Of a stretch of DNA of 64,000 bases, positions 3,401-28,074 are shown one piece after another; position 1 is the stretch's first letter; each line of letters opens with the position of its first letter. Made by a program: the position numbers and the translations under genes. The stretch covers positions 199,673 through 263,672 of the forward strand of contig CAWFPG010000004.1 in NCBI GenBank assembly GCA_963817715.1. The letters are read 5' to 3'. The notes beneath the pieces are model-generated. The model did not search any database. It saw only the letters and a program-made list of their open reading frames with translations, and had not been told where the DNA came from. The stretch is from an uncultured Gemmatimonadales bacterium. Its GTDB lineage: Bacteria > Gemmatimonadota > Gemmatimonadetes > Gemmatimonadales > GWC2-71-9.

Positions 3401-4822
3401 ATGGCATTCCGCACCGAAAAGGACCCGCTCGGCGAGAAGCAGGTGCCGGCAGACGCGCTCTACGGCATCCAGACGCTCCGCGCCGTCGAGAACTATCCCA
3501 TCTCCGGCCTCCGGCCGCTGCCCGCCTTCGTCGACGCGGTGGTGCGGATCAAGAAGGCCGCCGCGCTGACCCACAAGGAGACCGGGCGTCTCGATGCGAC
3601 ACGGGCCGATGCGATCGTCGCGGCGGCCGACGAGGTGCTCGGTGGCCAGTACCGCGACCAGTTCGTGGTCGATCCCTATCAGGCCGGCGCCGGCACGTCG
3701 CACCACATGAACGTGAACGAGGTCCTGGCCAATCGCGCCAACGAGCTGCTCGGCGGCACGCGGGGCAGCTACACGCCGGTGCACCCGAACGACCATGTCA
3801 ACATGGCGCAGTCGACCAACGACGTGATCCCGACCGCGATGCGGCTCGCCTCGCTCGGTGCGCTCCCGGCGCTGCTCGAGGCGATGGACGGGTTGGCGGC
3901 ATCGTTCCTCGATCGTGGCGTGGCATTCGACGGGGTGCTCAAGTCGGGTCGCACCCACCTGCAGGACGCCACGCCGATCCGACTCGGCCAGGAATTCACC
4001 GCCTACGGTCACACCGTGGCGCGGCACCGGGCCAAGCTGGCCCAAGCGGCGACCTGGCTGCTGCCGATGAACATCGGCGGCAGCGCGGTGGGCACCGGGC
4101 TCAACGCCGAGCCGGCGTACCCGGCGCTGATGGTCAAGCACTTGCGAGCGATCACCGGGCTCGAGCTCGAGGTGAGCGAGGACCGGATCCAGCTGATGCA
4201 GTCGATGGGCGACATCGCCACGCTGAGCGGGGCGTTGCGAGCCTTCGTGCTCGACCTCTGCAAGATCGCCGACGACATCCGTCTGCTGGCCTCCGGACCG
4301 CGCACCGGCCTCGCCGAGATCAGGTTGCCCGAGGTCCAGCCGGGATCGAGCATCATGCCGGGGAAGATCAACCCCTCGATCGCCGAGATGGTGAACCAGG
4401 TCTGCTATCAGGCGCTGGGGCTCGACACCACGGTGGCGATGGCCGCGAAGGCCGGCCAACTCGAGCTCAACGTGATGATGCCGGTGATCACCCACAACAT
4501 CGTCTTCGCGCTGCAGATCGTGGCCAATGCGGTGCGAGTCTTCGACCAGCGCTGCATCAGCGGTGTCGAGGCCGACGAGGCGATGTGCGCCCATTGGCTG
4601 GAGCGCTCCCCGGCACTGGTCACCGCGCTGGCCCCCAAGATCGGCTACGCCGAGGCCGCCAAGCTGGCCAAGGAGGCGATCCGGACCGGCCAGACCGTCA
4701 AGGAGCTGGTGGTTGCCAAGCAGCTCCTGCAGGGCCGTGAACTGGAAGACGTGCTCGACCTGCGCGCGATGACGGAGCTGGGCGTGCCCGGCGCGGGAAA
4801 GGGCACAGCGGCCGGCGGGTGA
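3401..4822 (+). CDS. aspA: aspartate ammonia-lyase (class II fumarase/aspartase superfamily)
   Basis: N-terminus RTEKDPLGEKQVPADALYGIQTLRAVENYPISG is aspartase-like. Carries the superfamily signature GSSIMPGKINP. Confidence 0.8.
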   Translation: MAFRTEKDPLGEKQVPADALYGIQTLRAVENYPISGLRPLPAFVDAVVRIKKAAALTHKETGRLDATRADAIVAAADEVLGGQYRDQFVVDPYQAGAGTSHHMNVNEVLANRANELLGGTRGSYTPVHPNDHVNMAQSTNDVIPTAMRLASLGALPALLEAMDGLAASFLDRGVAFDGVLKSGRTHLQDATPIRLGQEFTAYGHTVARHRAKLAQAATWLLPMNIGGSAVGTGLNAEPAYPALMVKHLRAITGLELEVSEDRIQLMQSMGDIATLSGALRAFVLDLCKIADDIRLLASGPRTGLAEIRLPEVQPGSSIMPGKINPSIAEMVNQVCYQALGLDTTVAMAAKAGQLELNVMMPVITHNIVFALQIVANAVRVFDQRCISGVEADEAMCAHWLERSPALVTALAPKIGYAEAAKLAKEAIRTGQTVKELVVAKQLLQGRELEDVLDLRAMTELGVPGAGKGTAAGG

Positions 4823-5994
4823 GTGAGCCGGTGGGGCGGTGGCGGCAGCTGACGCTGCTGGCCACCGTCGAGCTCCTGGGGATGTCGGTGTGGTTCGCCG
4901 CCAGTGCCGTCAAGCCGGCGCTGGCGGCGAACCTTTCGCTTTCGGCGGCCCAGACCGGTTGGCTCACCTCCGGGGTGCAACTCGGCTTCGTGCTGGGCAC
5001 CCTGCTCGCCGCCGTGCTCAACCTCGCCGACATCGTCCCGGCGCGGCGCTATGTCGCCGCCTCGGCCCTGATGGCCGCGGTGGCCAACGCCGGGCTGCTG
5101 GTCGCCCCCGATTTCGCAACGGCAATCACCACCCGGATCCTCACCGGGGCCGCGCTCGCGGGGGTGTACCCGCCGGCGATGAAGATGGCGGCGACCTGGT
5201 TCCGGCAGGGGCGCGGTCTCGCGATCGGCACTGTGGTCGGGGCGCTCACCGCCGGCAAGGCGATCCCCTACCTGCTCGAGGGCCTCGGCACCCTCGATCT
5301 CGCGCGGGCCGTGCTGGTTCCCTCCGGGGCCGCGCTGGCCGCCGCGGTGCTGGTCGGTGTCGGCTATCGCGACGGGCCCTATGCCTTCCCGGCACGGCCG
5401 TTCTCCTGGGGGCTGACCCGGGTGGCGATGGCCGACCCGACCGTCCGGCGGGCCACCGCCGGCTATCTCGGCCACATGTGGGAACTCTATGCCTTCTGGG
5501 CCTGGATTCCCGGCTTCCTCGCCGCCTCGCTGGCGGTCCACGGCCGCTCCAGTGGACCGGCCAACCTGTGGGCCTTCGCAGTGGTCGCGATCGGGGCTGC
5601 CGGGGCGGTGTGGGGTGGGATCGCCGCCGACCGGATCGGTCGGCCGGCAGTGGTGCGCCGTGCGTTGGTGGTGAGCGGCGCCTGTGCGCTCCTCTCCCCG
5701 TTCCTCTTCAGCGGTCCGCTACCGCTGTTGGTGGTCGCCACGCTGATCTGGGGAGTCGCGGTGATCGCCGACTCGGCCCAGTTCTCGGCGATGGTGACCG
5801 AGCATGCCGCGCCACACGCGGTCGGCACCGCCCTCACCCTGCAGACCTCGCTCGGCTTCCTGCTCACGATCGTCACCATCCAGGGGGTCCCGGCAATGGC
5901 CGCGGCGCTGGGATGGCGGTGGGCGTTCGCGGCCCTGGCGTTGGGGCCGCTGGCGGGTCTCTGGGCGGTGCGCCGGGTCGCCCGCACCCCCTAG
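4819..5994 (+). CDS. MFS transporter
   Basis: 391 aa with about 12 hydrophobic segments. GTG start overlaps the aspA stop (GTGA). Confidence 0.7.
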   Translation: MSEPVGRWRQLTLLATVELLGMSVWFAASAVKPALAANLSLSAAQTGWLTSGVQLGFVLGTLLAAVLNLADIVPARRYVAASALMAAVANAGLLVAPDFATAITTRILTGAALAGVYPPAMKMAATWFRQGRGLAIGTVVGALTAGKAIPYLLEGLGTLDLARAVLVPSGAALAAAVLVGVGYRDGPYAFPARPFSWGLTRVAMADPTVRRATAGYLGHMWELYAFWAWIPGFLAASLAVHGRSSGPANLWAFAVVAIGAAGAVWGGIAADRIGRPAVVRRALVVSGACALLSPFLFSGPLPLLVVATLIWGVAVIADSAQFSAMVTEHAAPHAVGTALTLQTSLGFLLTIVTIQGVPAMAAALGWRWAFAALALGPLAGLWAVRRVARTP

Positions 5995-6019
5995 CGGAGG
6001 GCCTCCTCGAGGGTCGCCC

Positions 6020-6040
6020 CTGTCGGGGGGACCCCGACAG
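6020..6040 (+). terminator. GC hairpin after the MFS gene (CTGTCGGGG-gga-CCCCGACAG), no T tail
   Basis: Perfect 9-bp stem read directly, 26 nt after the stop at 5994. Confidence 0.4.
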
Positions 6041-6053
6041 CCGTCGGGTACCG

Positions 6054-6065
6054 CCGACTATATTC
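6054..6065 (+). promoter_or_regulatory. CCGACTATATTC motif containing a TATATT -10-like hexamer; putative leaderless promoter of the Rrf2 gene
   Basis: AT-rich hexamer at 6059-6064 ends 8 nt before ATG 6073, with no SD in between. The identical 12-mer occurs at 49918-49929 in front of uvrB. Confidence 0.35.
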
Positions 6066-6072
6066 TTCGACT

Positions 6073-6528
6073 ATGCGAGTCACTACTTGGACGGAGTATT
6101 CATTGATCATCACCCTCCACCTCGCCCGGCAGCGGGGTGAGGGTGGCGGGCCCACCGCCGCCCGGGAACTGGCCGAATCGGAGCGGCTCCCGGGCGACTA
6201 CGTCGAGCAGATCCTCCTCCGGCTCCGCCGGGCCGGGATCGTCTCCTCGGTACGGGGAGCCAAGGGCGGCTATCGTCTCGCCCACGAGCCCGACAAGGTC
6301 AGCGTCTTCGACGTGATGACCGCCTCCGAGCGGCAGACCTTCCGGTCGAACTGTGAGGATCACCGGATCGACGGCCTGCGCTGTGACCCGGGGCAGTCGT
6401 GCACCATCCGACCGATCTGGACGGAACTCCAGAACCGGATCGACGGTTTCCTTCGCAGCGTGACACTCGCCGACATGATGCAGAGTGAAGCCGCAGTGCA
6501 GGAACTGGTCACCCTCGGCGGTTCCTGA
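6073..6528 (+). CDS. Rrf2-family transcriptional regulator
   Basis: 151 aa. N-terminal wHTH pattern TEYSLIITLHLAR...ELAESERLPGDYVEQILLRLRRAGIVSSVRGAKGGYRLA, typical of Rrf2/IscR-like proteins. Confidence 0.8.
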   Translation: MRVTTWTEYSLIITLHLARQRGEGGGPTAARELAESERLPGDYVEQILLRLRRAGIVSSVRGAKGGYRLAHEPDKVSVFDVMTASERQTFRSNCEDHRIDGLRCDPGQSCTIRPIWTELQNRIDGFLRSVTLADMMQSEAAVQELVTLGGS

Positions 6529-6563
6529 CAGCACCTCCCGCCGGGGGCAGGACGATCACGCCA

Positions 6564-7706
6564 GTGCCTCCCGACCTCACCCCACAGCAACTCCAGCGCT
6601 ACGCCCGGCACCTCACCCTGCCGGAATTCGGGCTGGCCGGGCAACAGCGCCTGGCCGGGGCCCGGGTGCTGCTGATCGGCGCCGGCGGGCTCGGCTCACC
6701 GGCGGCGCTCTATCTCGGCGCTGCCGGGGTGGGCGTGCTGGGCATCGTCGACGACGACGTGGTCGACATTTCCAACCTGCAGCGCCAGGTCCTTCACGGC
6801 AGCGCCACCCTCGGCCAGCCCAAGACCGAATCCGCTGCGGCCCGTCTGGCCGACCTCAATCCCGAGGTGCGGGTCGAGCCCCATCAGGTCCGGCTCTCGA
6901 GCCACAACGCCCGCGACATCGTCGGCGGCTACGACCTGGTGCTCGACGGCAGCGACAACTTCCCGACCCGGTACCTCGTCAACGACGCCTGCGTGCTGGA
7001 GGGAAAGCCGCTGGTCTACGGCAGCATCTTCCGCTTCGAAGGCCAGCTCTCGCTGTTCAACGTCCCCGGTGGGCCGTGCTTCCGCTGCCTCTTCGCCGAG
7101 CCGCCGGCGCCGGAGCTGGTTCCCAGCTGTGCCGATGCCGGGGTGCTCGGGGTCCTGCCGGGGATCATCGGCACCCTTCAGGCCCTCGAGGCGATCAAGT
7201 GGATCGTTGGCGCGGGTGAGACGGCGGCGGGGCGACTGCTGCTCTTCGATGCGCTGGCGCTCAGCTTCCGGGAGATCGCGATCCGGCGAGACCCCGCGTG
7301 CCCGGCGTGCGGCGACGACCCGAGCATCGACCGGCTGATCGACTACGAGGCCTTCTGTGGGGTGGCCCCGCCAGGCATGGCGGGGGAGGACCTGGCGGTG
7401 ACCGTGACCGCGCTGTCGGCCGAGCTTGCCGGCACGGCGCCGCCGGTCCTGGTCGATGTCCGTGAGCCGTGGGAACACGAGCTGGCGCAGATCCCGGGGT
7501 CACTGCTGGTGCCGCTCGCCGAGTTGCCGGGTCGGCTGGCCGAGCTGCCGCGCGGGCGGCCGATGGTGACGGTGTGTCATCACGGTGTGCGCTCGGCGGC
7601 GGCGGCGGCGCTGCTCCGCCGGGCCGGCTTCGCCTCGGTGCGGAATCTCACCGGCGGGGTCGAGGCCTGGGCCACTGCGGTGGACCCGGCCATGCGTCGA
7701 TACTGA
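6564..7706 (+). CDS. moeB: MoeB/ThiF-type adenylyltransferase with C-terminal rhodanese domain (MoeZ-like sulfur-carrier activating enzyme)
   Basis: LTPQQLQRYARHLTLPEFG, nucleotide loop IGAGGLGSPAALYLGAAGVG, CxxC pairs (CFRC, CPAC), and a rhodanese tail with CHHGVRS. Confidence 0.8.
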   Translation: MPPDLTPQQLQRYARHLTLPEFGLAGQQRLAGARVLLIGAGGLGSPAALYLGAAGVGVLGIVDDDVVDISNLQRQVLHGSATLGQPKTESAAARLADLNPEVRVEPHQVRLSSHNARDIVGGYDLVLDGSDNFPTRYLVNDACVLEGKPLVYGSIFRFEGQLSLFNVPGGPCFRCLFAEPPAPELVPSCADAGVLGVLPGIIGTLQALEAIKWIVGAGETAAGRLLLFDALALSFREIAIRRDPACPACGDDPSIDRLIDYEAFCGVAPPGMAGEDLAVTVTALSAELAGTAPPVLVDVREPWEHELAQIPGSLLVPLAELPGRLAELPRGRPMVTVCHHGVRSAAAAALLRRAGFASVRNLTGGVEAWATAVDPAMRRY

Positions 7707-7886: not shown

Positions 7887-8388
7887 ATGGCGATCCGCAA
7901 GCCCGACGGCGCAGGGGATGACGATGCCCCGTCTCGCATCTCGGTGGCCCGCAACCCCAAGGCCACGCACGATTATCTACATCCTCGACAGCTTCGAGGC
8001 TGGCCTCGTGCTGACCGGGACCGAGGTGAAGGCAATCCGTCGTCGAGGCGCGTCGATCAAGGAGGCGTTCGCACGGCTCAGTCGGGGCGAGGTCTTCCTG
8101 GAGGGGATGCACATCTCGCCCTACGAGCAGGGCAACCGCTACAACCACGCCCCGATGCGGTCGCGCAAGCTGCTGCTCCACCGCCACGAGATCGAGCGGC
8201 TGATCGGGTCGGTGGAGCGCGACGGGCTCACCCTCGTCCCGCTGGAACTCTACTTCCGCCGGGGCCGGGCGAAGATCAAGCTGGCGGTGGCTCGCGGCAA
8301 GAAGGCCCACGACAAGCGCGAGACGCTCAAGCGTCGCATCGCCGAGCGCGAGGCCGCCCGGGAGGTGTCGGTGCGGAGGCGTCGGTGA
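7887..8388 (+). pseudogene. smpB: SsrA-binding protein SmpB, frame broken as assembled (1-nt insertion near 7977)
   Basis: The N-terminus MAIRK...[13 protein letters not shown] is in the frame of track ORF 7764. The rest, [21 protein letters not shown]...LLLHRHEI, is in the frame of ORF 7918. The join is GAT TAT c TAC. Total length 502 nt, i.e. 3n+1. Confidence 0.85.
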
Positions 8389-8448
8389 GAGTCGCCCTGC
8401 TCGCTCGCCGCACTGTCGCTGGTTGGCCGGCCACCGGAGCAGCTCCAG

Positions 8449-9598
8449 GTGACCACCCAGCGCGGGGTCGAGCGGATCGACCTGCGGCACGACGAACGCC
8501 TCGGGCCCCTGGTGCCCCTCGCCCCGCTGGTGCGGGCGGTGGGAGGCAGCATCGAGGCCGTGGAACCGTGGATTGTCTGGCGGAGTCCGAGCGGGCGTTT
8601 CCGCTTCCTCCCTGGTACACCCCTGATCGATGACGGCAACCAGATCCGCACCCTCCCCGCGTCGGTGCACACCGGTGGCGACACCACCTGGATTCCACTG
8701 GCCTTTGTGGCCGAGGTGCTGGCAGACCCGGCGCGGAAGGCGTGGACCTGGACCGCCTCGAGCGCGACGCTGGCGGAGGGACCGCCGATCTCGCCACTGG
8801 TGTCGCGGCCGGCGGCGACCACCGTCGGGGCCGAGGAGCGCTCCCGACTCCCCGCAGGACTGCGAGCGGGCCATCATGTGACCATCGACGCGGGGCACGG
8901 TGGCACCGATCCTGGCAACCCCGGAATGTTCTTCCCCAACGGACTCAAGGAGAAGGACGTCACGCTCGCGGTGTCGCTGCTCGTGCGTGACGAACTCGAG
9001 CGCCGCGGGGTGAAGGTGACGATGACCCGGACCACCGACACCCTGATCGCCCTGGGACAGCGCGCGCCACGCTACTGTCGCGATCGCTGCGACCTGTTCG
9101 TCTCGATCCACGTGAACTCGCTGCCGAGGCGGCCCGGCTTCACCACAGTGCGTGGTTTCGAGACCTACTTCCAGGCGCGAGGCACGCGACCGCCGACGCC
9201 GCGCGCGTGGCCTCGATGGAGAACGACGCCATGCGCTACGAAGTGGCCGACAGCGACGGCGAGGACCCAGGGACTCGACTTCATCCTCAAGGACCTCCAG
9301 GCCAACGAGTACCTCCGCGAATCGGCGCGCGCAGCCGAGTTGATCCAGTCGTCGCTCGGTGAGGTGGAGACCGGTGGCGATCGCGGGGTGCAAGCAGGCG
9401 AACTTTGCGGTGCTCAACACCGCCCGACGGCCGGCGATCCTGGTCGAGATCGGCTACAGCACCAATCGCGAGGATGCCCGCCAGATGACGACCAGCAGCG
9501 GCCAGCACGAACTCGCCGGTGCGATCGCCCGGGCCATCGTGAGCTATCTCCGCGAGTTCGATCGCAAGACCGGAGTGACCCGGGTGGGCTCGCCATGA
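8449..9598 (+). pseudogene. N-acetylmuramoyl-L-alanine amidase (Amidase_3, AmiC-like), three frame breaks as assembled
   Basis: Catalytic text IDAGHGGTDPG...FVSIHVNS...FETYFQ is followed by TADAARVASMENDAMRYEVADSDGEDPG in another frame (about 9176-9271). It returns to the first frame for LDFILKDLQANEYLRESA. DRGV|KQANFAVLNTARRPAILVEIGYSTN is broken at c9391 and ends in track ORF 9359..9598. The start is uncertain: a signal-peptide-like VRVALL begins at GTG 8385 in yet another frame. Confidence 0.8.
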
Positions 9599-10935
9599 GG
9601 CGAGTCCTCGCCCTGCTCCTGCTGCTCACGGCGTGCGGGTGGTCGAACGCGTTGTACAACGCCCGCCGCCTGTCGGCCTCGGCGGCCAAGGCCGAGCGCC
9701 AGGATCGCTCTTTCGACGCCGGCTCACTCTGGGGTCAGGTGGCGGTGAAAGCGGAGTCGGCCTACGTCCGCAATCCCGATGGCGGCCAGGCCGCCGAGGC
9801 GCTCTGGCTCCGGGGCCGGGCGCTGGCGCACCTCGGCGACTGCGTCACCGCGATGCCGGTCCTCGAGCATGCCCGGGTGGCGGGCGCCGGGGCCGACTGG
9901 ATTGACGCCCTGCGACTGGAACTCGCCCGGTGCCGGGCGCAGGGCGGCGATCCCGAGGGCGCGGTGGCGATGCTGGAACCGTTGCTCGGCAGCGAGGATG
10001 CCGAGCTCCGCTCCGGGGCGATGCAGGTGGCCGGTCGCGCCCTGGTGCGGGCGGGGCGATGGGGCGAGGCGCTCCAGATGCTGGCGGGGGATCCTGATCC
10101 TGATGCGACCTGGGATCGTGCCCTCGCGCTGGCTCACCTCGGCCGTGTCGATTCCGCCCTCGCGGAAGTGTCACCCCGCATCGCCCTGGCCGACTCCAGT
10201 GCCAACTGGGATGAGTTGGTTCGTACCGTCGCCGCGGCGTCCCCCGAGGCCATCGACCCGTTGCTCACGCGCCTCGGCACGATGCGCAAGGTGAACGACA
10301 CCATCATGGCCCGTTGGCGGCTCGCGGCGGCCCAGGGGCTTCTCGCGGCCGACCACGGCGCGGCCGACCGGTACCTCGAGGCCGTGCTCGAGACCCCCAC
10401 GGTCCCGTCGGCCTCGCAGGCGCGGATGCTCCTGACGGAGCGTCGCATGGCGACGGTCGCCGATAGTGCATCGCTGCAATCGGTACTCGACTCACTCGGC
10501 CCGCTGAATCGCGGCGATGGGGTGGCGATGATCTTCGCGCAGGACCTGGCGCGCTGGGGGGATGCGATCCAGGGCGACATCCGCGCCAACCCACCGGGGG
10601 CCGCCACGGGTGACCTGGCGATGTTCTTCGACGCCTCGATCGCCCGGGACAGCCTGAAGGCACGCCACCTGGCGTCGTGGCTGTTCCAACGGATGGAGCA
10701 CGGGTGGCCGCAGTCGCCCTATCTCGCCAAGGGGCTGCTGGCACGGATCGCTCTGGAGCCCGACTCGGCCGAGGCAATCAGGGCTCGGCTCGCTGCGATC
10801 ACCGACTCACCCTATCTCGCGTTCCTGCAGGGGCAGGAAGGGCAGCGCTTCACCGCACTGGAGGATTCGCTGCGATTCTATCTCGACGACCGGATGGCCG
10901 CAGTCATCGCTGGGTCGGGACCGGACGCCAATTGA
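9595..10935 (+). CDS. lipoprotein with TPR-like helical repeats (hypothetical)
   Basis: ATG 9595 overlaps the amidase stop (ATGA). Lipobox MRRVLALLLLLTAC. The rest is Ala/Leu-rich and helical with repeated pairs. It is the in-frame continuation of track ORF 8449..10935. Confidence 0.55.
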   Translation: MRRVLALLLLLTACGWSNALYNARRLSASAAKAERQDRSFDAGSLWGQVAVKAESAYVRNPDGGQAAEALWLRGRALAHLGDCVTAMPVLEHARVAGAGADWIDALRLELARCRAQGGDPEGAVAMLEPLLGSEDAELRSGAMQVAGRALVRAGRWGEALQMLAGDPDPDATWDRALALAHLGRVDSALAEVSPRIALADSSANWDELVRTVAAASPEAIDPLLTRLGTMRKVNDTIMARWRLAAAQGLLAADHGAADRYLEAVLETPTVPSASQARMLLTERRMATVADSASLQSVLDSLGPLNRGDGVAMIFAQDLARWGDAIQGDIRANPPGAATGDLAMFFDASIARDSLKARHLASWLFQRMEHGWPQSPYLAKGLLARIALEPDSAEAIRARLAAITDSPYLAFLQGQEGQRFTALEDSLRFYLDDRMAAVIAGSGPDAN

Positions 10936-11795
10936 CCCGGGCACGATCGGTGGCCGGCCTCACCTTCCCGAACCCGGTCCTGCTTGCCTCGGGCACGGCG
11001 GGCTATGGCCATGAACTCAACGGGGTCGTCGACCTGCGTTGCCTGGGCGGCCTGGTGACCAAGGCGGTCTCGCTCGAGCCACGGGGCGGCAATGCTGCCC
11101 CGCGGGTGGCCGAGTTCCGGGGCGGGATGCTCAACTCGGTCGGGCTTGCCAATCCCGGTGTGGAGGCGGTCCGCGATCGCGAATTGCCGGCCCTCGCGGC
11201 GCTCGGCCTTCCCGGGCGCGTCATCGTGAACGTGGTGGGATTCACGCTCGACGAATACGCCGAGGTGATCCGTCGACTCGATGTCCTCGACCGTCACGAT
11301 GGCTACGAACTCAACCTCTCGTGCCCAAACACCTCCGCGGGCGGTCTGGAGTTCGGGGCGGATCCGGGCCAGGTCGCCGCGGTGGTGTCGCGGTGCCGGT
11401 CAGCGACCGCACGACCGATCTTTGCCAAGCTCTCGCCGGCGCTCGCCGACATCCCGTCGATTGCTGCCGCAGCGGTCGATGCCGGAGCCGATGGGATCAC
11501 CCTGATCAACACCATGCCCGGGATGCTCTTCGACGGTGGCACCCCGCGGCTGGGCAACGGCTTCGGCGGGGTGAGTGGTCCGGCAGTGCTTGCCACCGGC
11601 GTCCTGGCGGTGCAGCGGGTGGCGGCTCGCCTGCCCGAGGTGGCCATTATCGGGGTGGGCGGCATCCGCACGGCCGATGACGCCAGGCAGTACCTGCACG
11701 CCGGGGCCGCGCTGGTGGCCATCGGCACCGCCGCCCTTGCCGATCCGCGACTTCCCGAGCGGGTCGTCCGCGACCTGGAGCAGACCGATGGCTGA
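10932..11795 (+). CDS. pyrD: dihydroorotate dehydrogenase, class 1 catalytic subunit
   Basis: Motifs NPVLLASGTAGYG, NSVGLANPG, ELNLSCPN, GITLINT, GGVSGPAV, IIGVGGI. TTG 10932 overlaps the preceding stop; GTG 10951 is an alternative start. Confidence 0.85.
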   Translation: MTRARSVAGLTFPNPVLLASGTAGYGHELNGVVDLRCLGGLVTKAVSLEPRGGNAAPRVAEFRGGMLNSVGLANPGVEAVRDRELPALAALGLPGRVIVNVVGFTLDEYAEVIRRLDVLDRHDGYELNLSCPNTSAGGLEFGADPGQVAAVVSRCRSATARPIFAKLSPALADIPSIAAAAVDAGADGITLINTMPGMLFDGGTPRLGNGFGGVSGPAVLATGVLAVQRVAARLPEVAIIGVGGIRTADDARQYLHAGAALVAIGTAALADPRLPERVVRDLEQTDG

Positions 11796-16074: not shown

Positions 16075-21346
<5,272 letters not shown>

Positions 21347-21350
<4 letters not shown>

Positions 21351-22301
21351 CCACCGCGCGCGACCCGGCCTTCATCGCGGGACTCCGCGAGCGGCTCGCC
21401 GGGACGGTGCGCGACGCCGAGCCGCTGGGCCGCTGGTCGACCTACCGGATCGGTGGGCCGGCGACGGTGGTCTTCCCGGCGAACGCCGAGGACGTCGCGA
21501 TCGCGCTCCGGCACGCCGGCGAGGCCGGGGTGCCGTGGTTCGCGCTGGGGCTCGGCAGCAACCTCCTCTTTCCCGACCACGGCCTCGACGCCCTGGTGAT
21601 CCGGATCGGCAAGGGACTCGATCGCCTCGATCAGGACGGCGACCGCTGGCGGATCGGCGCAGGGATGCCGGCGCCGCTGGCGGCCAAGCGGACTGCGCAC
21701 GCCGGCTGGGGCGGGATCCACAAGATGGTCGGGGTGCCCGGCAGCGTCGGTGGCGGGGTCGTGATGAACGCCGGCTGCCACGGCGCCGAGTGGCGCGACG
21801 TGATCGAGTCGGTGGTGGTGGTCGACCCCGACGGGAACGACCGCGTGATCGCCGCGGCGGATGCCGGTTTCACCTATCGCCGGAGCGCGCTGGGCCATGT
21901 GGTGGTGCTCGAGACCACGGTCGACCTCCACCCCGCCGACAGCGCCGCCCTCGATGCCGAGACCGACGAGCTCTATCGCTGGCGCAAGGAGGGCACGCCG
22001 TTCAATCAGCCGTGCTGCGGCAGCGTCTTCAAGAATCCGGTGCTCCCCGACGACTGGGCGCGAGGCGCCGCGGACCAGCGGCCAGTTCATCGAGGCGACC
22101 GGGTGCAAGGGGCTGCGCGAGGGCGGGGCGGAGGTCTCGCCGATGCACGCCAACTACATCGTCAACACCGGCGGGGCCACGGCGGCCGACGTGGTGGCAC
22201 TGATGCGCAACGTGCGCGACCGGGTCGAGGCGCGCTGGGGCGTGCGGCTGGAGCCCGAGGTTAAGCTGATCGGGGCGGCGGGCGGGGCGGGGGAGATTTA
22301 G
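21347..22301 (+). pseudogene. murB: UDP-N-acetylenolpyruvoylglucosamine reductase, frame broken near 22058-22072
   Basis: GTG 21347 overlaps the carB stop. WSTYRIGGPATVVFPANAEDV...LGLGSNLLF...GSVFKNP is in one frame. SGQFIEATGCKGLREGGAEVSPMHANYIVNTGGATAADV is in the frame of ORF 21861. Confidence 0.85.
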
Positions 22302-22303
22302 GA

Positions 22304-22333
22304 TTGCGGATATCGCGGGGGGGGGGGTACGAT
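22304..22333 (+). promoter_or_regulatory. putative promoter TTGCGG - 18 nt (includes G11) - TACGAT for the low-GC cassette
   Basis: Hexamers read directly. The spacer length is set by the homopolymer. No experimental support. Confidence 0.3.
22317..22327. repeat. G11 homopolymer
   Basis: Counted directly (cgc + 11 g + tac). Lies 16 nt after the murB stop and 72 nt before the mini-protein ATG. Confidence 0.9.
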
Positions 22334-22398
22334 GGTTTGAGGTCGTCTTGTGTGATATGGAGATGGCCAGGATCATTTCCCCCGCTGAGGAGAATGTG

Positions 22399-22698
22399 AT
22401 GGAACACGTCCGATCGATTGCACTAAGTGGAGCCCGCCTTGGCCTTGCCGTTCTGGCGTTGGTCTTGGTCACCGGGGCAGAGGCTCAAGCCACGGACGGG
22501 CAAGGCGGCTGCTCGGCGGCGGATCCGGGTTGGTACTGCGCCACGGCCAGTTCGTTCGAGGGGACGAGCTACTGCATTCCGGGGCAGAGTGGCGGGTGTG
22601 AAACCTGTCATCACACCGGTGACACGGACGACAAGTGCTTCTACTCCGGTGGGCCGAAGCACACGGGGTACAAGGCCGAGGCGTATCCAGGCGCCTAG
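22399..22698 (+). CDS. secreted cysteine-rich mini-protein (99-aa precursor, about 69-aa mature, 6 Cys, one CXXCH motif), hypothetical
   Basis: GAGGAG lies 6 nt before ATG 22399. Sec-type signal MEHVRSIALSGARLGLAVLALVLVTGAEAQA. Mature part TDGQGGCSAADPGWYCATASSFEGTSYCIPGQSGGCETCHHTGDTDDKCFYSGGPKHTGYKAEAYPGA. Confidence 0.55.
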   Translation: MEHVRSIALSGARLGLAVLALVLVTGAEAQATDGQGGCSAADPGWYCATASSFEGTSYCIPGQSGGCETCHHTGDTDDKCFYSGGPKHTGYKAEAYPGA

Positions 22699-22711
22699 TC
22701 GCGGAGCCCGG

Positions 22712-23869
22712 ATGTTCCGCTGCCCAACGGTCGAGGACGCAATGTCACGACTCCGGCTCGCATTGGGGTCATGTGCGCAGGTCTGGACGCGAGCGACGCG
22801 ATGGGGAGGGTCTCTCTGGATCCGGAAACGGCATGGCCCAATATCGGTTCGAGTTCTGCGACTAATGCTCGTCGCGACTCTCGGCTGCGTTGGTTCCGAA
22901 GATCCTGGGCTCATGCCGATAGAGGTCAGTTCGTCTGTCCTATCCAGGAACTCTGCGGTCGGTCGAGCGAACTACCTCATGGCGCGGGGGCCATTCCTCT
23001 GGGTGACGGATGCCAGCGGGGAGCCGTTCCTTCACGTCATCGACCTCCGAAGTGGAGCCCTCCTTCATTCCTTGGGGCGACGAGGAGAAGGACCGGGAGA
23101 GTTCGCGTCGATGGGCAGGCCGCTCCCGAGTCCGGCGAGCCCGTACGGAATGCTTGCCTATGACGAAGACCTGAATCGACTCACCGATATTCAGCTCGAT
23201 TCGACCGGTGACGTCCGCATCGGGGCGTTGGCCAGCTTGCCCACGGCTCCGATGCCATCGGCCCTCACCTCATTCGGGAATGGGTACTTAGGCTGGGTTT
23301 CAGACAGCAATGCCAGGTGGATGATCATCCGTCGTGGCGAGTCCGGGCGGCGGCTTGTCGATGGCCCGCTGCTCGGCAATGGATCCGTGCCGTACTCGCA
23401 GCGTGTCCTCGCATCGGCAAATCTCAAAGTCTGTGTCAAGCCCGATCAAACCAAATTCGCGGTGCTTTACGGTTCGGCCGGACGCATCGAGCTGCACGAT
23501 TCGTCGGCAGCCCTGCTCGATTTGGCGGCGACGCCGGATTCGAGTAATGGCGATTTCGAATTGAAGGATGGAGTGGCCCGCTGGAATAGGCATCGCTACT
23601 ACTACTCGGATTGTGCGGCGACCGATCAATATCTGTTCGCCTTGTTTTCCGGACAGGTTGAGGGGGTGGGAGTCGAGATGGCCTATGCCGGGGATCGCGT
23701 GCAGGTTTTCGACTGGTCCGGGGCGTTGCGCGGTGTGCTTGCGCTGCCCTTTAGGGTCGCTCGGATGGCGGTCGATGCAGAACAGCGGAGCCTGTACGGA
23801 TCGGGCACTGACGGGGAGACGATCTATCGTTTCAGTATCCCCGCGGAGTTCCAGGGAGTTGGCCGCTGA
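22712..23869 (+). CDS. beta-propeller-like periplasmic protein or lipoprotein (6-bladed TolB-like / arylsulfotransferase-like fold suspected), hypothetical; start uncertain
   Basis: Repeated strand-like motifs: FLWVTDASGEPFLHVIDLRSGALLHSLG, YLFALFSG, VQVFDWSGALRGVLALP, and the terminal SLYGSGTDGETIYRFSI. There is a possible signal or anchor RKRHGPISVRVLRLMLVATLGC. Candidate ATGs are 22712 (GGAG upstream), 22742 and 22865. The track ORF from 22427 overlaps the mini-protein gene and is rejected upstream of 22712. Confidence 0.5.
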   Translation: MFRCPTVEDAMSRLRLALGSCAQVWTRATRWGGSLWIRKRHGPISVRVLRLMLVATLGCVGSEDPGLMPIEVSSSVLSRNSAVGRANYLMARGPFLWVTDASGEPFLHVIDLRSGALLHSLGRRGEGPGEFASMGRPLPSPASPYGMLAYDEDLNRLTDIQLDSTGDVRIGALASLPTAPMPSALTSFGNGYLGWVSDSNARWMIIRRGESGRRLVDGPLLGNGSVPYSQRVLASANLKVCVKPDQTKFAVLYGSAGRIELHDSSAALLDLAATPDSSNGDFELKDGVARWNRHRYYYSDCAATDQYLFALFSGQVEGVGVEMAYAGDRVQVFDWSGALRGVLALPFRVARMAVDAEQRSLYGSGTDGETIYRFSIPAEFQGVGR

Positions 23870-23892
23870 GCACCCGCCCCATTGCCGTCAGG

Positions 23893-24606
23893 ATGATTGA
23901 CCGAGCGACCATCATAGCGGTGGTTCTGGTGCTCGGCGTTCTCGGTGTCCGGGCCGTCCGCCATTCGGGATTCACGCAGCCGAGCGCACTGCGGGATGCG
24001 AGCGACATCGCTTCAGGCAAATCCGATCAACGCACACCGTCGGGGGTGAGGCTCTCTCGACTCGATTTGCGGCGTCTTGCCTCGACCGACCTCCTGCTCG
24101 GTGATTCCGCCGCCCCAGTGCCTGTCGTGGTCTTCTCCGACTACTCCTGTGGTTGGTGTGCGAGGTACCAGGCCTCGCTCGACTCGCTATTGGATCGCTA
24201 TCCAGGGATTGTAAGCGTGGTCTTCAGGCCGCTTCTGCTCGACTCTGGCGCCTTGGGCGCCATCGACGTGCATATGGGGGCGGCCTGCGCGGCCGAGCAG
24301 GGTGTGTTCGCGGAGTATCATCGCGCGGCCTACTCGAATCAGCAGGCAGTTGGTACTCGCAACGGCTGGATGAGGATCGGCGAGGCTGCTCCTGTGCCGG
24401 ACTTGAAGGAATTTGAACGCTGCGTGCTGAGCGAACGGTATCGTGAAATGATCGTGGCCAGCACGAATGAGGCCCATCGGCTCGGGTTCGTCACGACTCC
24501 TGCGTCGATCATTGGTCTTCACCCAATTGTCGGCCGCCTGACCTTCACGGTCCTTGATTCCCTGGTGAAGGAGCAGCTCGATCGACTGCGGGCAGGATAC
24601 TCCTAG
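23893..24606 (+). CDS. membrane-anchored DsbA-family thiol:disulfide oxidoreductase (CGWC active site)
   Basis: N-terminal TM segment IIAVVLVLGVLGV. Thioredoxin-fold core PVVVFSDYSCGWCARYQASLDSLLDRYPG...VFRPLLL. C-terminal part GFVTTPASIIG resembles the cis-Pro loop region. Confidence 0.75.
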   Translation: MIDRATIIAVVLVLGVLGVRAVRHSGFTQPSALRDASDIASGKSDQRTPSGVRLSRLDLRRLASTDLLLGDSAAPVPVVVFSDYSCGWCARYQASLDSLLDRYPGIVSVVFRPLLLDSGALGAIDVHMGAACAAEQGVFAEYHRAAYSNQQAVGTRNGWMRIGEAAPVPDLKEFERCVLSERYREMIVASTNEAHRLGFVTTPASIIGLHPIVGRLTFTVLDSLVKEQLDRLRAGYS

Positions 24607-24622
24607 GCCCTCTCTCGCGGTC

Positions 24623-24675
24623 GCGCCCCCAGGGGGCGGGGGCGCTGTAGTCCCTCGCTCCCCTCGGGACGAGGG
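24623..24675 (+). terminator. two stacked GC hairpins closing the low-GC cassette (GCGCCCCC..GGGGGCGC; CCCTCGcTCCCctcGGGACGAGGG)
   Basis: Read directly, 17 nt after the DsbA-like stop. No T tail. Confidence 0.45.
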
Positions 24676-24734
24676 TGACGGTGTTCCGGCCGCCACGACG
24701 CAATGTCGGGTATCCCCATCGGAGAGCCCCGCGC

Positions 24735-25645
24735 ATGCGCCGTATCCTGCCTGTCCTGTTCGCCGTCATCATCGCCGCCTGCGGCGGTTCCTCGCCGACC
24801 GGTCCGTCCGGTCCCGGCGGCGGGTCGAACGTCTTCTCCGCCTCGATCGACGGCACGGCCTGGTCGGCGCCGTCGACGGCGATCAGCTCGGCGAGCAACA
24901 CCGGGTCGATCCCGGGTGGGATCCTCTTCACCGGCACCACCACTGTCGGCACCCAGGCGCGGTCGCTGATCCTGTCGCTCGACCGGATCAAGGGACCCGG
25001 CACCTATCCGCTGGGAGTCAACACCGGGACCACCGCGGGCGGCACCCTCACCATGACCTTCGGCTCGGCATCGTGGTGGACCCCGCTCAACGGCAAGTCG
25101 GGCACCCTCACCATCACCTCGCTCACCAGCAGCCGGGTGGTGGGCACCTTCAGCGGTGAGCTGGCCCCGCTGGCGGGTGGCACCGGCAACGTCCACATCA
25201 CCAACGGCACGTTCGATGTGCCGCTCAACCCCGGCTACGCCCCCCGCCGGCCGACGATGAAGGCTCATGGGTCAAGGCGACGATCGGGGGCGCCGACTGG
25301 AACGGGGCGACGGTGATCGGCATCGGTGGCGGGACCGGGACCGCCGCGATCACCGCGACCACCGACGACTATGTGGTGACGGTCACCGCGGGGCCACTCT
25401 CCGGACCGACCAGTGGTCCGCTCACCGATGCCGGCACCGTGCCGATCCGCACGGTGCGGGTCCAGCGCGCCGGCACCACCAATGCCTGGGGTGGACTGAG
25501 CGGTGACGTGGGCACCCTCACCATCACGTCGATCACCGCGACGCGGATGGCGGGGAGCTTCTCCGGCACGCTGGCGCCGATCTCCGGTGGAGGCGCCGGC
25601 CTGGTCGTGCTCAACGGCCAGTTCGATGTGAAGATCGGGCAGTGA
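24735..25645 (+). pseudogene. lipoprotein with an internally duplicated beta-rich domain; frame broken at C6 run 25240-25245
   Basis: Lipobox MRRILPVLFAVIIAAC. Domain 1 ends GTLTITSLTSSRVVGTFSGELAPLAGGTGNVHITNGTFDVPL. Domain 2 (frame of ORF 25313, readable back to PADDEGSWVKATIGGADWNGA) ends GTLTITSITATRMAGSFSGTLAPISGGGAGLVVLNGQFDVKI. Confidence 0.6.
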
Positions 25646-25767
25646 CGATAGACGATAGACGATAGACGATAGACGTGTGGTCCGCGGACGACTGGTGCTC
25701 GGATCCGGGCTCGAGTGCTCGTGATCGAATGCGTCTATCGTCTCTCGTCTCTCGTCTCTCGTCTATC
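25644..25767. repeat. nested palindromic element B: (GACGATA)x4 array, 54-nt core, (GTCTATC)(GTCTCTC)x3(GTCTATC) array
   Basis: Read directly. Fills the gap between convergent stop codons (TGA 25643-25645 and the complement of TAG at 25763-25765). The arms pair about 25/28. The core contains the palindrome GTCCGCGGAC. Confidence 0.8.
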
Positions 25768-26452
25768 GCGCCAGGCGATATCCCGTCTTCCGCACCGTGA
25801 TGATGTGCACCGGGTTGGCGGGATCCTCTTCGAGCTTCCGTCGCAGCTCGAGGATGTGCACGTCGACGGTGCGCGAGATCACGTCGGCTTCGTACTGCCA
25901 GACCTCGTCGAGCAGCTCGGCTCGGGTGGCGACCCGGCCGTCGCGATGGAGGAGCGCGACCAGCAGGTCGAACTCCTTGGGGCGGAGCGCGACTGCCTCT
26001 CCATCACGGGTGACCTCGTGGGTGGCTCGGTCGACGGCCACCGTGCCGAATTGCCAGCGGTCCGGGGCGGGATGCGATTCCTCGGGTGGGGCGTGGCGGC
26101 GCAGCATTGCGGCCACCCGGGCCAGCAGCTCGGGGAGCGAGAACGGCTTGACCACGTAGTCGTCGGCGCCATGGCGGAAGCCGCGCAGTCGGTCGGCTTC
26201 CGAGCCCCGCGCCGAGAGGATAAGCACCGGGACCTCGCGGCCCTCGTCGCGGAGCTGTCGCAGCACGTCGATGCCCTCCATGCCGGGGAGCATGATGTCG
26301 AGGATGAGGAGGTGAGGGTCCCAGTGTCGGGCCTGGCCAAGGCCCTTCTCGCCCGTCGCCTCGACACGCACCTCGTAGCCATCGTGGGCGAGGTTGAGCC
26401 GCAGTCCCTCGGCCAGGGTCTGGTTGTCCTCGATCACCAGGATCCTTCGCAT
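25763..26452 (-). CDS. OmpR/PhoB-family response regulator
   Basis: MRRILVIEDNQTLAEGL...LLILDIMLPGMEGIDV receiver domain, and a winged-helix output domain ending VHIITVRKTGYRLAR. Confidence 0.9.
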   Translation of the reverse strand: MRRILVIEDNQTLAEGLRLNLAHDGYEVRVEATGEKGLGQARHWDPHLLILDIMLPGMEGIDVLRQLRDEGREVPVLILSARGSEADRLRGFRHGADDYVVKPFSLPELLARVAAMLRRHAPPEESHPAPDRWQFGTVAVDRATHEVTRDGEAVALRPKEFDLLVALLHRDGRVATRAELLDEVWQYEADVISRTVDVHILELRRKLEEDPANPVHIITVRKTGYRLAR

Positions 26453-28074
26453 CAGGTCGCCTCCGCCGCGGCCATCAGCCGCACCTCGATTCGTGCTCCA
26501 TGGTCCAGATCGCCCACGACGGCATCGCCCCCGTGGAGCCGTGCCAGGTAGCGCACCACCGCCAGTCCGAGGCCGGTGCCGCCGTCGTCGCCACGGGCAT
26601 AGGGCAACCAGACCCGCTCACGCTCGGCGCTGGGGATCCCGGGGCCCTCGTCCTCGACCACCAGCAGCAGCGCGTCGTCGCGATGATCGACCACGATCCG
26701 CAGCCGCTGGCCCTCGGGGCCGTGGCGGATCGCGTTGTCGAGCAGGTTGACAAGAATCCGCCGCACTGCGCTGCCATCGACAATTGCCGTCGGGGGACCG
26801 AGATGATCGATTTCGACCCGCATGTGGCGGTCGGCGAGCAGCGGCTTGAAGGCGGCAATGACCTCATCGACCAGGCGGACGACATCCTCGGGCCCCGTCT
26901 CGAGCTGTTCGTCGGCACGCGCCATCCGCGCCGATGCCAGGATGTTCTCGACCATGTCGCCGAGGCGGCGGGTCTCCCGGGTGATCGTCTCGAGCGCCGC
27001 GCGTCGCGCTGCCGGTTCGACAATCCGCTCGAGCATCAGCGTCTCGGCATAGAGATGGATGTTGGCGAGTGGGGTGCGCAGCTCGTGTGACACCGACGAG
27101 GTGAACTCGTGCCGCATTCGCGCCAGGGTGAGGGTGCGCCAGGCCAGTGCGGCGGTGCCGGCGAGCAGCAGCAGCGCCAGGCCGATCACCGCCGCGACAC
27201 GGGGACCGGGGGCCGGTGGATAGCCACCCGGCATGAGGTAGGGAATGGCGTCGGCGCCAACGGTGACCACCACGCGACCCGAGAGGGGGGCCAAGGCGAC
27301 CTGGTCCATCGTCCAGCCCTCGAGTGGCTCGTTGTAGTCGAGCAGCGTGATGCCATCGCCGGTCTCCACGTGCACGGCGATCGGAACGATGTGGCTGCTC
27401 GGTCGCTTCTCGGGCAGCGAGTCGTACATCATCTCGAAGAACGCCTCGGTCCGCTGCGGCGCCGGGAGCAGCACGGCGGTGCGGTACTCGTAGAGCGGCA
27501 CCTCGAACCCGATCCATCCGGCGCCCGCCCGGTTGGGTTGGAGCACCGCCAGGGTGGTGTCGGCACCGCGGGCAACGACCGTGGCGCGGAAGGTCAACCG
27601 CTTCGGCAGTGAGTCGGCCAGTCGTGCGTCGAGTCGTGCGACCAGCGTGCTGTCGACCGTGCCGTCGCTGGAAGTCAGCCGCCACCCGAGCGAGTCGCCC
27701 ACGAAGAAGTTGCGCGGCATGACCTTGGCCGGTCCCGTTTCATAGAGCTGTGCCGCGACCCGCGAGGTCCACTCACTCACCGTGCCGGTCGCCGGCGCCC
27801 GGGAGGCATCCTGCGCGGCAAGCAGCAGGTTCCGGAAGGTGTACCAGGTTTCCGAACCGTACAGTTCGCCGTAGTGCCCCGACATGTAGGCGGCGTGGTC
27901 GCGAAGTGTCTCGTCGGCCGTGGCTCGGTGGCGCACCATCGACTGCCACAGCGTCCAGCCGCCCCACGCCACCATGGCGATGGCCAGCACAAACGCCGCC
28001 ATCACGAGGCGTTCGGTGTGCTTCATCGCCGGGGCCAGCGGCCAGCGGCGGCGCGGGTTTCGCGATCCGGACAT
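26452..28074 (-). CDS. sensor histidine kinase (periplasmic sensor, HisKA, HATPase_c)
   Basis: H-box FTSSVSHELRTPLANI, N-box LVNLLDNAIRHG, G-boxes EDEGPGIP and GTGLGLAVV. The stop overlaps the RR start by 1 nt. ATG 28026 (MKHTERL...) is an alternative start. Confidence 0.85.
   Translation of the reverse strand: MSGSRNPRRRWPLAPAMKHTERLVMAAFVLAIAMVAWGGWTLWQSMVRHRATADETLRDHAAYMSGHYGELYGSETWYTFRNLLLAAQDASRAPATGTVSEWTSRVAAQLYETGPAKVMPRNFFVGDSLGWRLTSSDGTVDSTLVARLDARLADSLPKRLTFRATVVARGADTTLAVLQPNRAGAGWIGFEVPLYEYRTAVLLPAPQRTEAFFEMMYDSLPEKRPSSHIVPIAVHVETGDGITLLDYNEPLEGWTMDQVALAPLSGRVVVTVGADAIPYLMPGGYPPAPGPRVAAVIGLALLLLAGTAALAWRTLTLARMRHEFTSSVSHELRTPLANIHLYAETLMLERIVEPAARRAALETITRETRRLGDMVENILASARMARADEQLETGPEDVVRLVDEVIAAFKPLLADRHMRVEIDHLGPPTAIVDGSAVRRILVNLLDNAIRHGPEGQRLRIVVDHRDDALLLVVEDEGPGIPSAERERVWLPYARGDDGGTGLGLAVVRYLARLHGGDAVVGDLDHGARIEVRLMAAAEAT

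Follow-up and report, generated by a model that had tools for sequence, protein, structure and literature searches.

A candidate extracytoplasmic operon of Gemmatimonadales encoding a six-cysteine mini-protein, a beta-propeller lipoprotein and a DsbA-like oxidoreductase

A cassette of three genes with low guanine-plus-cytosine (GC) content occupies positions 22302-24675 of the window, a 64-kb stretch of DNA from an uncultured soil bacterium of the Gemmatimonadales. The genes lie on the same strand downstream of murB and encode, in order, a secreted mini-protein with six cysteines, a beta-propeller lipoprotein and a membrane-anchored DsbA-like protein. Judged by comparison of related loci, the trio is a real unit, an operon that is inherited and relocated as a whole, and the cassette appears to be self-contained, relocatable, extracytoplasmic and found only in Gemmatimonadales. 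The reading preferred here, to which a probability of about one half is assigned, is that the mini-protein and the propeller would form a binding pair matured by the DsbA-like protein and encoded at a contingency- or conflict-type locus.

The first-pass annotation had described the three same-strand genes as a 99-residue precursor with a Sec signal peptide, a propeller of about 385 residues and a transmembrane-anchored thioredoxin-fold protein with a CGWC motif, and all three were found as claimed. At the level of the genome its interpretation is largely supported; the functional part is inferred.

Recurrence of the trio

Loci compared in this work carry L-numbers and proteins carry P-numbers; the mini-protein of the window is P0015. 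The mini-protein gene was followed by the propeller gene in nine of nine distinct loci found, and a DsbA-like gene came next in each of the seven loci with downstream DNA visible. Recurrence elsewhere had been set beforehand as a test of the proposed module, and the trio does recur, always in the order mini-protein, propeller, DsbA-like protein. The same three families were observed in this order in at least seven loci at 35-76% identity. The propeller stop and the dsbA start overlap by 4 nucleotides (nt) in five of the seven loci (L001, L004, L017, L008 and the P0019 contig).

The surroundings of the trio vary. It stands downstream of murB in the window, in L001/L002 and in L006/L007; a sugar operon lies further downstream in the window and downstream in L006/L007, where an extra propeller gene also precedes the trio. 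The P0019 contig likewise has a sugar operon downstream. In L004 the trio is placed between an unnamed open reading frame (ORF) of 211 amino acids and mutS, while in L008 an integrase and an IS3-type transposase are found upstream and a TIR protein downstream. L017 is a 2.4-kb contig with the trio alone. L011/L012 and L013 show the mini-protein and propeller genes up to the contig end, with an AraC-like gene upstream in the former and cinA in the latter, and P0027 is on a 1.3-kb contig with no gene context visible. At least five genomic contexts are represented: murB; the 211-residue ORF with mutS; the integrase, IS3-type transposase and TIR protein; the AraC-like gene; and cinA.

The closest pair of loci was L004 and L017, with amino-acid identities of 0.76, 0.73 and 0.73 for the mini-protein, propeller and DsbA-like protein. 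The corresponding ratios of nonsynonymous to synonymous substitution rates (dN/dS) of 0.15, 0.19 and 0.16 indicate purifying selection on all three genes. There are exceptions to the fixed arrangement. L005 has a propeller gene without the mini-protein or dsbA gene, and L006/L010 carry a second propeller paralogue (5124-6089) upstream of the mini-protein gene. This paralogue is 82% identical to P0005, which is probably encoded on the same Joint Genome Institute (JGI) contig as the mini-protein P0017.

The mini-protein was present in 2 of 185,579 species-representative genomes, both of them metagenome-assembled genomes of uncultured Gemmatimonadales. Plasmids, viral contigs and JGI metagenome contigs yielded no relatives of either the propeller or the mini-protein.

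These data bear on the simplest alternative, in which the cassette would be three unrelated, weakly expressed accessory genes that form no module and whose low GC reflects weak codon bias. Low GC at third codon positions (GC3) does occur in some other accessory ORFs of the relatives, for example in a 269-residue ORF of L001 (GC3 0.64). The fixed order in at least seven loci and at least five contexts, the stop/start overlaps, the matched divergence of the three genes and the restriction of the mini-protein family to the cassette nevertheless leave this explanation effectively refuted.

The three predicted proteins

The mini-protein gene (22399-22698, + strand) encodes 99 amino acids. A GAGGAG Shine-Dalgarno ribosome-binding site is located 8 nt 5' of the gene, and the N-terminus of the window protein aligns with those of all homologues. 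The signal peptide comprises residues 1-31 (22399-22491), of which 29-31 form an invariant terminal A-x-A. The mature protein has 68 residues with six invariant cysteines, the motif GQSGGCETC and an invariant histidine. A profile search of 5.8 billion protein clusters returned 13 mini-proteins only, all of 96-101 residues. Alignment of 14 mini-proteins gave the family pattern G-x-S-G-G-C-E-(T/S)-C, C-F, one His and six Cys, with C38, C47, C59, G62, S64-G65-G66-C67-E68, C70, C80 and H88 as invariant residues.

Searches with the mini-protein gave no match in Pfam, NCBIfam, PADLOC or the PDB, and the PDB profile search detected no similarity to nDsbD or to anything else. PHROGs gave one marginal match, to a PHROG without known function (E = 0.009). 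On this sequence evidence the mini-protein is a new family without relatives outside the cassette. A CxxCH heme site of the c-type cytochrome kind was considered for the CETCH of the window protein, and a PDB match to a tetraheme cytochrome had E = 0.9. The site was rejected as a heme motif because its histidine is not conserved; most homologues have Phe, Trp, Glu, Tyr, Ala or Thr in its place.

The second gene (22712-23869, + strand) is predicted from Pfam, an AlphaFold2 (AF2) model and a lipobox alignment to encode a six-bladed NHL-like beta-propeller lipoprotein. Its open frame spans 22427-23869, and the candidate starts are ATG 22712, which gives 385 residues and has GGAG upstream, and ATG 22742. 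The start is uncertain because the window has GTT at the codon where the relatives start. The lipobox cysteine is encoded at 22886-22888 (…VATLG-C) and aligns across the homologues. The match to Pfam TolB_like PF15869 (E 1.1e-5, 25.4 bits) is under the 29.2-bit cut-off, and DUF5128 matches weakly. A profile of 13 propeller relatives recovered 16,085 clusters at E<=0.001 among 1.84 billion representatives, and of ten sampled members of this profile family seven exceed the PF15869 cut-off (32-61 bits). One relative bears the name 'BF3164 family lipoprotein [Gemmatimonadales]'. By these profile comparisons the propeller appears to be a divergent member of the PF15869/BF3164 family. Clear, unrelated annotated families for the two proteins would have spoken against the proposed module; the mini-protein has no family and the propeller matches only the uncharacterized PF15869/BF3164.

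In the AF2 model of the propeller, which has a mean predicted local distance difference test score (pLDDT) of 83 with 237 residues at 90 or more, the barrel is above 90 and 24 strands are present, which may be read as six four-stranded blades. Foldseek with this model returned NHL propellers at target template-modeling scores of 0.64-0.73; Foldseek and the PDB profile search together gave NHL-repeat propellers (Thin, Brat, TRIM2/3/71) and generic propellers. The invariant residues, which include D151, R156, T158, R202, A-G-R-I-E 256-260 and D355, correspond to repeats of the NHL structural motif (D..N.R[IL], AGRIE). As no separate catalytic constellation is conspicuous among the invariant residues, the propeller resembles a platform for binding more than it does an enzyme with a recognizable active site. 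Cysteines 241 and 301 (385-residue reading) were both present in 73 of 144 family representatives, both absent in 66 and single in 5; the both-or-neither pattern in 139 of 144 is as expected for a disulfide.

In the literature searched, no functional account was found of the BF3164, DUF5128 or PF15869 families, of NVEALA, a name of small proteins whose genes may adjoin those of six-bladed propellers in Bacteroides, or of a DsbA combined with a propeller and a cysteine-rich protein. L014 (541-4902) encodes a distant PF15869 propeller, P0011, whose gene comes after those for an extracytoplasmic function (ECF) sigma factor and a zf-HC2 anti-sigma factor and after a 69-residue secreted three-Cys ORF. 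Small secreted Cys proteins beside PF15869 propellers may be a wider pattern.

The first-pass annotation had offered two analogies for the trio, assT-dsbL-dsbI and the methylamine dehydrogenase genes mauB/mauA/mauD. No homology to either was obtained in any test, and the tryptophans of the tryptophan tryptophylquinone and cysteine tryptophylquinone (TTQ/CTQ) cofactors are not conserved. The Trp preceding the second cysteine of the mini-protein (W45), the sole candidate, is Tyr, Phe and Phe in P0024-P0026, and the second conserved Trp is absent. An enzyme of the quinoprotein type, on the model of methylamine dehydrogenase or quinohemoprotein amine dehydrogenase (QHNDH), with the propeller, a Cys-rich cofactor subunit and a thioredoxin-like maturation factor, has a formal resemblance in the parts list only. 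At E<=1, Pfam and NCBIfam gave only TolB_like/DUF5128 for the propeller, nothing for the mini-protein and no MauD-type model for the DsbA-like protein. In addition, the propeller is predicted to be six-bladed and NHL-type, its invariant residues comprise only the structural NHL motif, and no mauE/mauG-like, radical-SAM or electron-acceptor genes were seen in any locus. This explanation is disfavored and extremely unlikely.

The third gene (23893-24606, + strand) encodes a membrane-anchored DsbA-like protein of 237 residues with an N-terminal hydrophobic transmembrane anchor and CGWC at 24148-24159. Matches to Pfam Thioredoxin_4 PF13462 (2.4e-21, 77.1 bits, cut-off 23.2) and DSBA PF01323 (2.1e-12, 47.7 bits, cut-off 25.6) place it clearly in the DsbA superfamily, and it is a predicted oxidoreductase. 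The CGWC motif is found in the cassette DsbAs (CSWC in L008), and the T202-P203 loop, a candidate cis-Pro loop, is invariant in all those aligned. The cassette DsbAs also have a second conserved Cys pair, C132/C177, and a conserved linker motif, PSGRRLSRL, that is specific to them. No fourth gene belongs to the cassette in any locus, and neither DsbB nor VKOR is encoded in it; PADLOC and PHROGs gave no meaningful matches for either the propeller or the DsbA-like protein. The frame 5' of the dsbA ATG (23860-23892) encodes …STRPIAVR-MIDRAT, which aligns with the N-terminal tail of the homologues (QRPKAARLLDKAT), and contains no ATG, GTG or TTG; either the dsbA start has moved downstream in the window genome, or an indel hides the original start.

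The best PDB relatives of the DsbA-like protein were the ordinary DsbA entries 4pwp and 4pwo. Further relatives were 4gxz, 6nen and 6mhh (E 3e-7 to 3e-8), chains entered in the PDB as copper-sensitivity-suppressor or copper/metal-resistance proteins. Together with the invariant C-E-T-C and His88 of the mini-protein, the latter matches could suggest a periplasmic copper- or metal-handling module, in which CxxC, Glu and His of the mini-protein would bind metal and the part of ScsC would fall to the DsbA-like protein. Such a role is improbable: the DsbA entries score best, no copper-resistance genes are nearby in any locus, hypervariable alleles are unexpected for metal homeostasis, and six invariant cysteines in a secreted protein encoded beside a DsbA point to disulfides.

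The overlap of the propeller and dsbA genes, suggestive of translational coupling, and the PSGRRLSRL linker would also suit a split thiol-redox machine resembling NHLRC2 and SOQ1, both of which couple a thioredoxin-like domain to an NHL propeller. The DsbA-like protein and the propeller would then form a stable complex with the redox motif where the two meet, and the invariant CxxC of the mini-protein, with its conserved flanking Gly, Glu and Thr, would be a redox relay or a regulated target and not a passive substrate for folding. The thioredoxin module here is nevertheless DsbA-type (Pfam DSBA/Thioredoxin_4), whereas that of NHLRC2 and SOQ1 is presumably of a different, TlpA/redoxin-like type. 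Neither NHLRC2 nor SOQ1 was among the PDB profile matches or the best 50 fold matches, and the mini-protein has no detectable similarity to nDsbD. A split redox machine is considered quite unlikely.

Composition, allelic divergence and relocation

The GC content of the cassette is 62.3%, compared with 73.3% for murB and 69.4% for the whole window. It is the minimum-GC 2.4-kb stretch of the 64 kb, about 4.4 standard deviations below the mean (mean 69.3%, standard deviation 1.6). The composition drop after murB had been proposed from hand counts of 60-nt lines; these were exact (58.3% for 22861-22920 and 78.3% for 21361-21420), and both are extreme lines. GC3 is 0.73, 0.69 and 0.71 for the called mini-protein, propeller and dsbA genes, and the two cassette frames measured stop to stop, at 0.67 and 0.70, are the lowest among coding-like ORFs of at least 200 residues. 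The other ORFs of this class range over 0.73-0.94, nearly all at 0.78 or more. The suggested relaxation of the third-position preference was thus confirmed, with 0.67-0.73 in the cassette against 0.78-0.94 in nearly all of the remainder. Past about 24650 the GC fraction is back up to 0.67-0.71, in agreement with the expected return to host level.

Three genomes have the cassette at the same site, with carB and murB upstream and an operon of hexapeptide-transferase, DegT, GFO and UDP-sugar-dehydrogenase genes downstream. Between the window and L009/L010 the cassette proteins are 42-60% identical and the products of the flanking genes 75-88%. Synonymous differences (pS) are 0.67-0.80, which is saturated, in the cassette and 0.48-0.56 in the flanks. 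Relatives at the murB site do not carry the cassette with host-like composition, since GC3 is depressed there too (0.61-0.76 in the cassette against 0.81-0.86 in the flanking genes). Three Gemmatimonadales genomes already carry the cassette at this site, which leaves an old insertion or a hotspot of replacement as the possibilities. As far as the comparison of these genomes goes, the cassette is not a recent strain-specific insertion, and its residence at the murB site is old or repeatedly renewed.

No tRNA was found at 15-32 kb of the window and no integrase adjoins the window cassette, and Rfam and tRNA scans of the cassette region gave nothing. An att-like 18-nt flanking repeat (22284-22301/24633-24650) was dismissed as chance, as it contains only a 10-nt exact match (E = 0.06) and is G-rich. 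The proposal of an acquired module consequently holds in part: the foreign composition and the relocatable character of the cassette agree with it, but an integrase, a tRNA and significant flanking repeats are lacking in the window and the relatives already carry the cassette at the site.

Signs of movement were observed in other loci. The L001 cassette is bracketed by a 300-nt direct repeat of 95% identity (4968-5267 and 8162-8461) derived from the 3' end of a transketolase gene, and a second copy of the murB 3' end, 78% identical, is also present (4375-4462 and 8014-8101). An independent assembly confirmed the repeat structure as far as the second copy. The arrangement has the appearance of a single-crossover integration through homologous recombination; a duplication is the possible alternative. 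In the more distant locus L008 a tyrosine integrase and an IS3-type transposase pair (4835-7446) lie directly upstream of the trio, and the TIR-domain protein downstream (10915-11685) matches ThsB/TIR defense models.

One pair of mini-proteins appears mosaic. The signal peptides of P0017 and P0019 agree in 31 of 31 residues, while the mature parts are only 46% identical and are each nearer a different allele group. Most other pairs do not show greater conservation of the signal peptide than of the mature part. The shared signal peptide next to differing mature parts points to a recombination breakpoint at the junction of the two in P0017/P0019.

Upstream of the mini-protein gene, in the intergenic region after murB, a G11 homopolymer (22317-22327, no strand assigned) is located 72 nt 5' of the start. 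It is the sole homopolymer of at least 9 nt in the 64-kb window and is a candidate slipped-strand tract. L001 has C10 (5653-5662) and L006 has G10 (6130-6139), 77-89 nt 5' of the mini-protein gene; L007, which is 99.4% identical to L006, has G11 (5-15), one G longer. In the roughly 140 kb compared (an estimate), four tracts of at least 10 nt occur in total, three of them upstream of mini-protein genes, and the upstream regions of the window, L001 and L006 are otherwise unalignable. Homopolymer tracts are a hallmark of slipped-strand contingency loci in Neisseria, Bordetella and Haemophilus, and the tract may switch expression of the cassette by slipped-strand phase variation. An alignment of nine upstream regions showed no conserved regulatory motif, and a scanner found no sigma-70 consensus promoter near the tracts of the window, L001 and L006. 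TTG-N17-18-TAC arrangements picked out by eye near the tracts were unsupported by the scanner, and no promoter is claimed.

In a specific version of the preferred reading, the mini-protein would be a Sec-dependent, disulfide-stabilized, bacteriocin-like toxin, the propeller its lipoprotein immunity partner and the DsbA-like protein a maturation oxidoreductase. In its favor, the gene for a small secreted Cys-rich peptide stands directly before that of a membrane-tethered partner, the alleles are strongly diverged with a mosaic signal peptide/mature junction, and the distribution is rare and patchy. The extra propeller of L010 and the lone propeller of L005 resemble orphan immunity genes, and the L008 trio is beside an integrase, an insertion sequence and a TIR protein. 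Precedents for the separate parts are known: the sublancin operon of the B. subtilis SPbeta prophage encodes its own BdbA/BdbB. [quoted passage not shown] Nevertheless, no exporter, lysis gene or double-glycine leader accompanies the trio, and Sec leads only to the periplasm of a diderm. A propeller of about 330 residues is large for an immunity protein, the dN/dS values of 0.15-0.19 give no sign of positive selection at the available resolution, and the PADLOC and PHROGs libraries contained no meaningful match. The toxin/immunity assignment is a tentative one, possible but on the unlikely side.

In the mechanism proposed for the DsbA-matured binding pair, the DsbA-like protein, tethered to the inner membrane by one transmembrane helix, would oxidize or isomerize the cysteines of the mini-protein (up to three disulfides) and the single conserved Cys pair of the propeller. 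Once folded, the mini-protein would serve the propeller as its specific partner or ligand, either in the periplasm or on the cell surface. Host DsbB or VKOR would re-oxidize the DsbA-like protein, since the cassette encodes neither. A dedicated disulfide catalyst that serves a Cys-rich partner, as the first-pass annotation envisaged, fits the strict co-occurrence, the 4-nt overlap, the six invariant mini-protein cysteines and the co-varying cysteines of the propeller. Contingency- or conflict-type behavior and allele specificity of the pair are suggested by alleles that diverge beyond their flanks, the mosaic mini-protein gene, extra and orphan propellers and the upstream tract. The specific role preferred for the pair, that of a secreted effector or ligand whose cognate lipoprotein would bind it or give immunity, is the weakest step of the proposal. 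The fullest form is a phase-variable Gemmatimonadales locus with recombination-shuffled alleles, in which a private DsbA would mature a disulfide-knotted secreted mini-protein and its cognate NHL-type propeller lipoprotein as an allele-specific pair, either effector/immunity or ligand/receptor; this form is regarded as speculative and unlikely.

Several observations weigh against the binding-pair reading. Only about 10 loci are known, all from uncultured organisms. The purifying selection and the invariant GQSGGCETC describe a conserved core and not wholesale diversification, and the low GC3 and high pS may come in part from weak codon bias, if the accessory operon is poorly expressed, instead of from foreign origin or older alleles. 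The AF2 model of the mini-protein is poor (pLDDT 65), so that the fold and disulfide pattern are not readable from it, and the conserved CETC might, together with Glu and His, just as well form a site for metal or redox chemistry, and such a site would not simply be folded by a DsbA. The tract lengths come from assemblies with indel errors, and the differences between them are possibly assembly error. Finally, an exporter across the outer membrane is absent from the loci, which weakens a secreted-effector role.

Neighboring features and relation to known systems

The first-pass annotation had the cassette close with two stacked hairpins. The GC-rich region 3' of the dsbA stop (24607-24690, + strand) does fold, with a minimum free energy of -48.3 kcal/mol, and could be a terminator, but no T-tract is present behind it. 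The hairpins lack statistical support because shuffled sequences fold comparably (37 of 200 same-composition shuffles fold equally well; z = -0.9), and this part of the description was given up.

Two essential genes upstream of the cassette are frameshifted in the window assembly. The frame of murB changes at about 22051-22071 relative to the intact L006 murB, and carB is split over two frames at about 19437-19774 compared with intact orthologues. The murB of L001 is split in the same way as that of the window. Assembly indels, perhaps of long-read origin, are the probable cause of both frame splits in the window. The indel errors that these frameshifts reveal leave the exact start codons uncertain.

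Two tandem lipoprotein-like ORFs (24675-25645) follow the window cassette. They match the NCBIfam Riean_0653 family below the cut-off and have an internal 81-nt repeat in common. These ORFs and a two-component system (25763-28074) separate the cassette from the DegT/GFO/UDP-sugar-dehydrogenase operon, which in L006/L007 comes directly after the cassette. Between convergent genes at 25641-25768, an array of four to five copies of the heptamer GACGATA lies 56 nt away from an inverted CGTCTCT/CGTCTAT array; the arms are 32 nt long and 91% complementary, and the arrays could act as a terminator in both directions or represent a repeat element.

With respect to known systems, the closest functional parallel appears to be assT-dsbL-dsbI of uropathogenic E. 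coli, where Grimshaw et al. in 2008 reportedly linked DsbL/DsbI to arylsulfate sulfotransferase (ASST). ASST has a beta-propeller fold. In both systems a gene for a periplasmic propeller stands beside a DsbA paralogue thought to be dedicated, and both are accessory and patchy. The cassette propeller is unrelated in sequence (at E<=1, Pfam gave only TolB_like and DUF5128 and NCBIfam none) and is a predicted lipoprotein, and the cassette DsbA-like protein is membrane-anchored. The cassette differs further in having no DsbI/DsbB partner in any locus and an added six-Cys mini-protein as its first gene. By analogy, DsbL/DsbI may be taken as the nearest functional precedent, being a DsbA-type redox pair that possibly serves specific substrates (PMC6067686).

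A thioredoxin-like (Trx-like) domain joined to an NHL-repeat propeller is seen in the crystal structure of NHLRC2 (PMC6107167). In SOQ1 the lumenal Trx-like and NHL domains form a stable association, with the redox motif at the Trx-NHL interface, and a small, Cys-bearing, beta-stranded C-terminal domain is the presumed partner of the Trx-like domain in disulfide exchange (bioRxiv 10.1101/2021.03.16.435614). These proteins resemble the cassette in coupling a thioredoxin fold to a six-bladed NHL propeller, and the SOQ1 domains are on the extracytoplasmic (lumenal) side of an anchor. They are single fused polypeptides, in contrast to the three separate genes and the DsbA-type module of the cassette.

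The TolB_like/BF3164/DUF5128 propellers of PF15869 are apparently the cassette propeller's own family and have the lipobox in common with it; pairing with a mini-protein and a DsbA has not been described before in this family. The sublancin locus sunA-sunT-bdbA-sunS-bdbB likewise combines a small secreted Cys peptide, a mobile element and its own oxidoreductases. It is Gram-positive, with a double-glycine leader, an ABC exporter, a glycosyltransferase and no propeller, and shows no homology to the cassette. Methylamine dehydrogenase (mauB/mauA/mauD) has a similar parts list of propeller, small Cys-rich subunit and thioredoxin-like accessory protein, but no homology was found in the three proteins, the cofactor Trp is not conserved and mauE/G are missing from the cassette. 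MauB is a seven-bladed propeller, compared with the six blades predicted here.

The principle that an accessory DsbA paralogue is encoded beside the extracytoplasmic protein it presumably serves is already known. What appears new is a mini-protein family confined to the cassette and its obligatory pairing with a propeller of PF15869/BF3164, a family of about 16,000 clusters at 50% identity, together with the hypervariable alleles at a fixed site, the relocation, the mosaic mini-protein junction and the conserved upstream homopolymer tract. If the mini-protein is the ligand of the propeller, a testable function would be available for PF15869/BF3164, the first functional handle on that family. 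If the proposal is true, the cassette would be a bacterial split-gene counterpart and simple model of the cooperation between thioredoxin and NHL domains in human NHLRC2 and plant SOQ1. Gemmatimonadales are an abundant soil lineage and almost uncultured, and the cassette would be among the first accessory envelope systems described for them.

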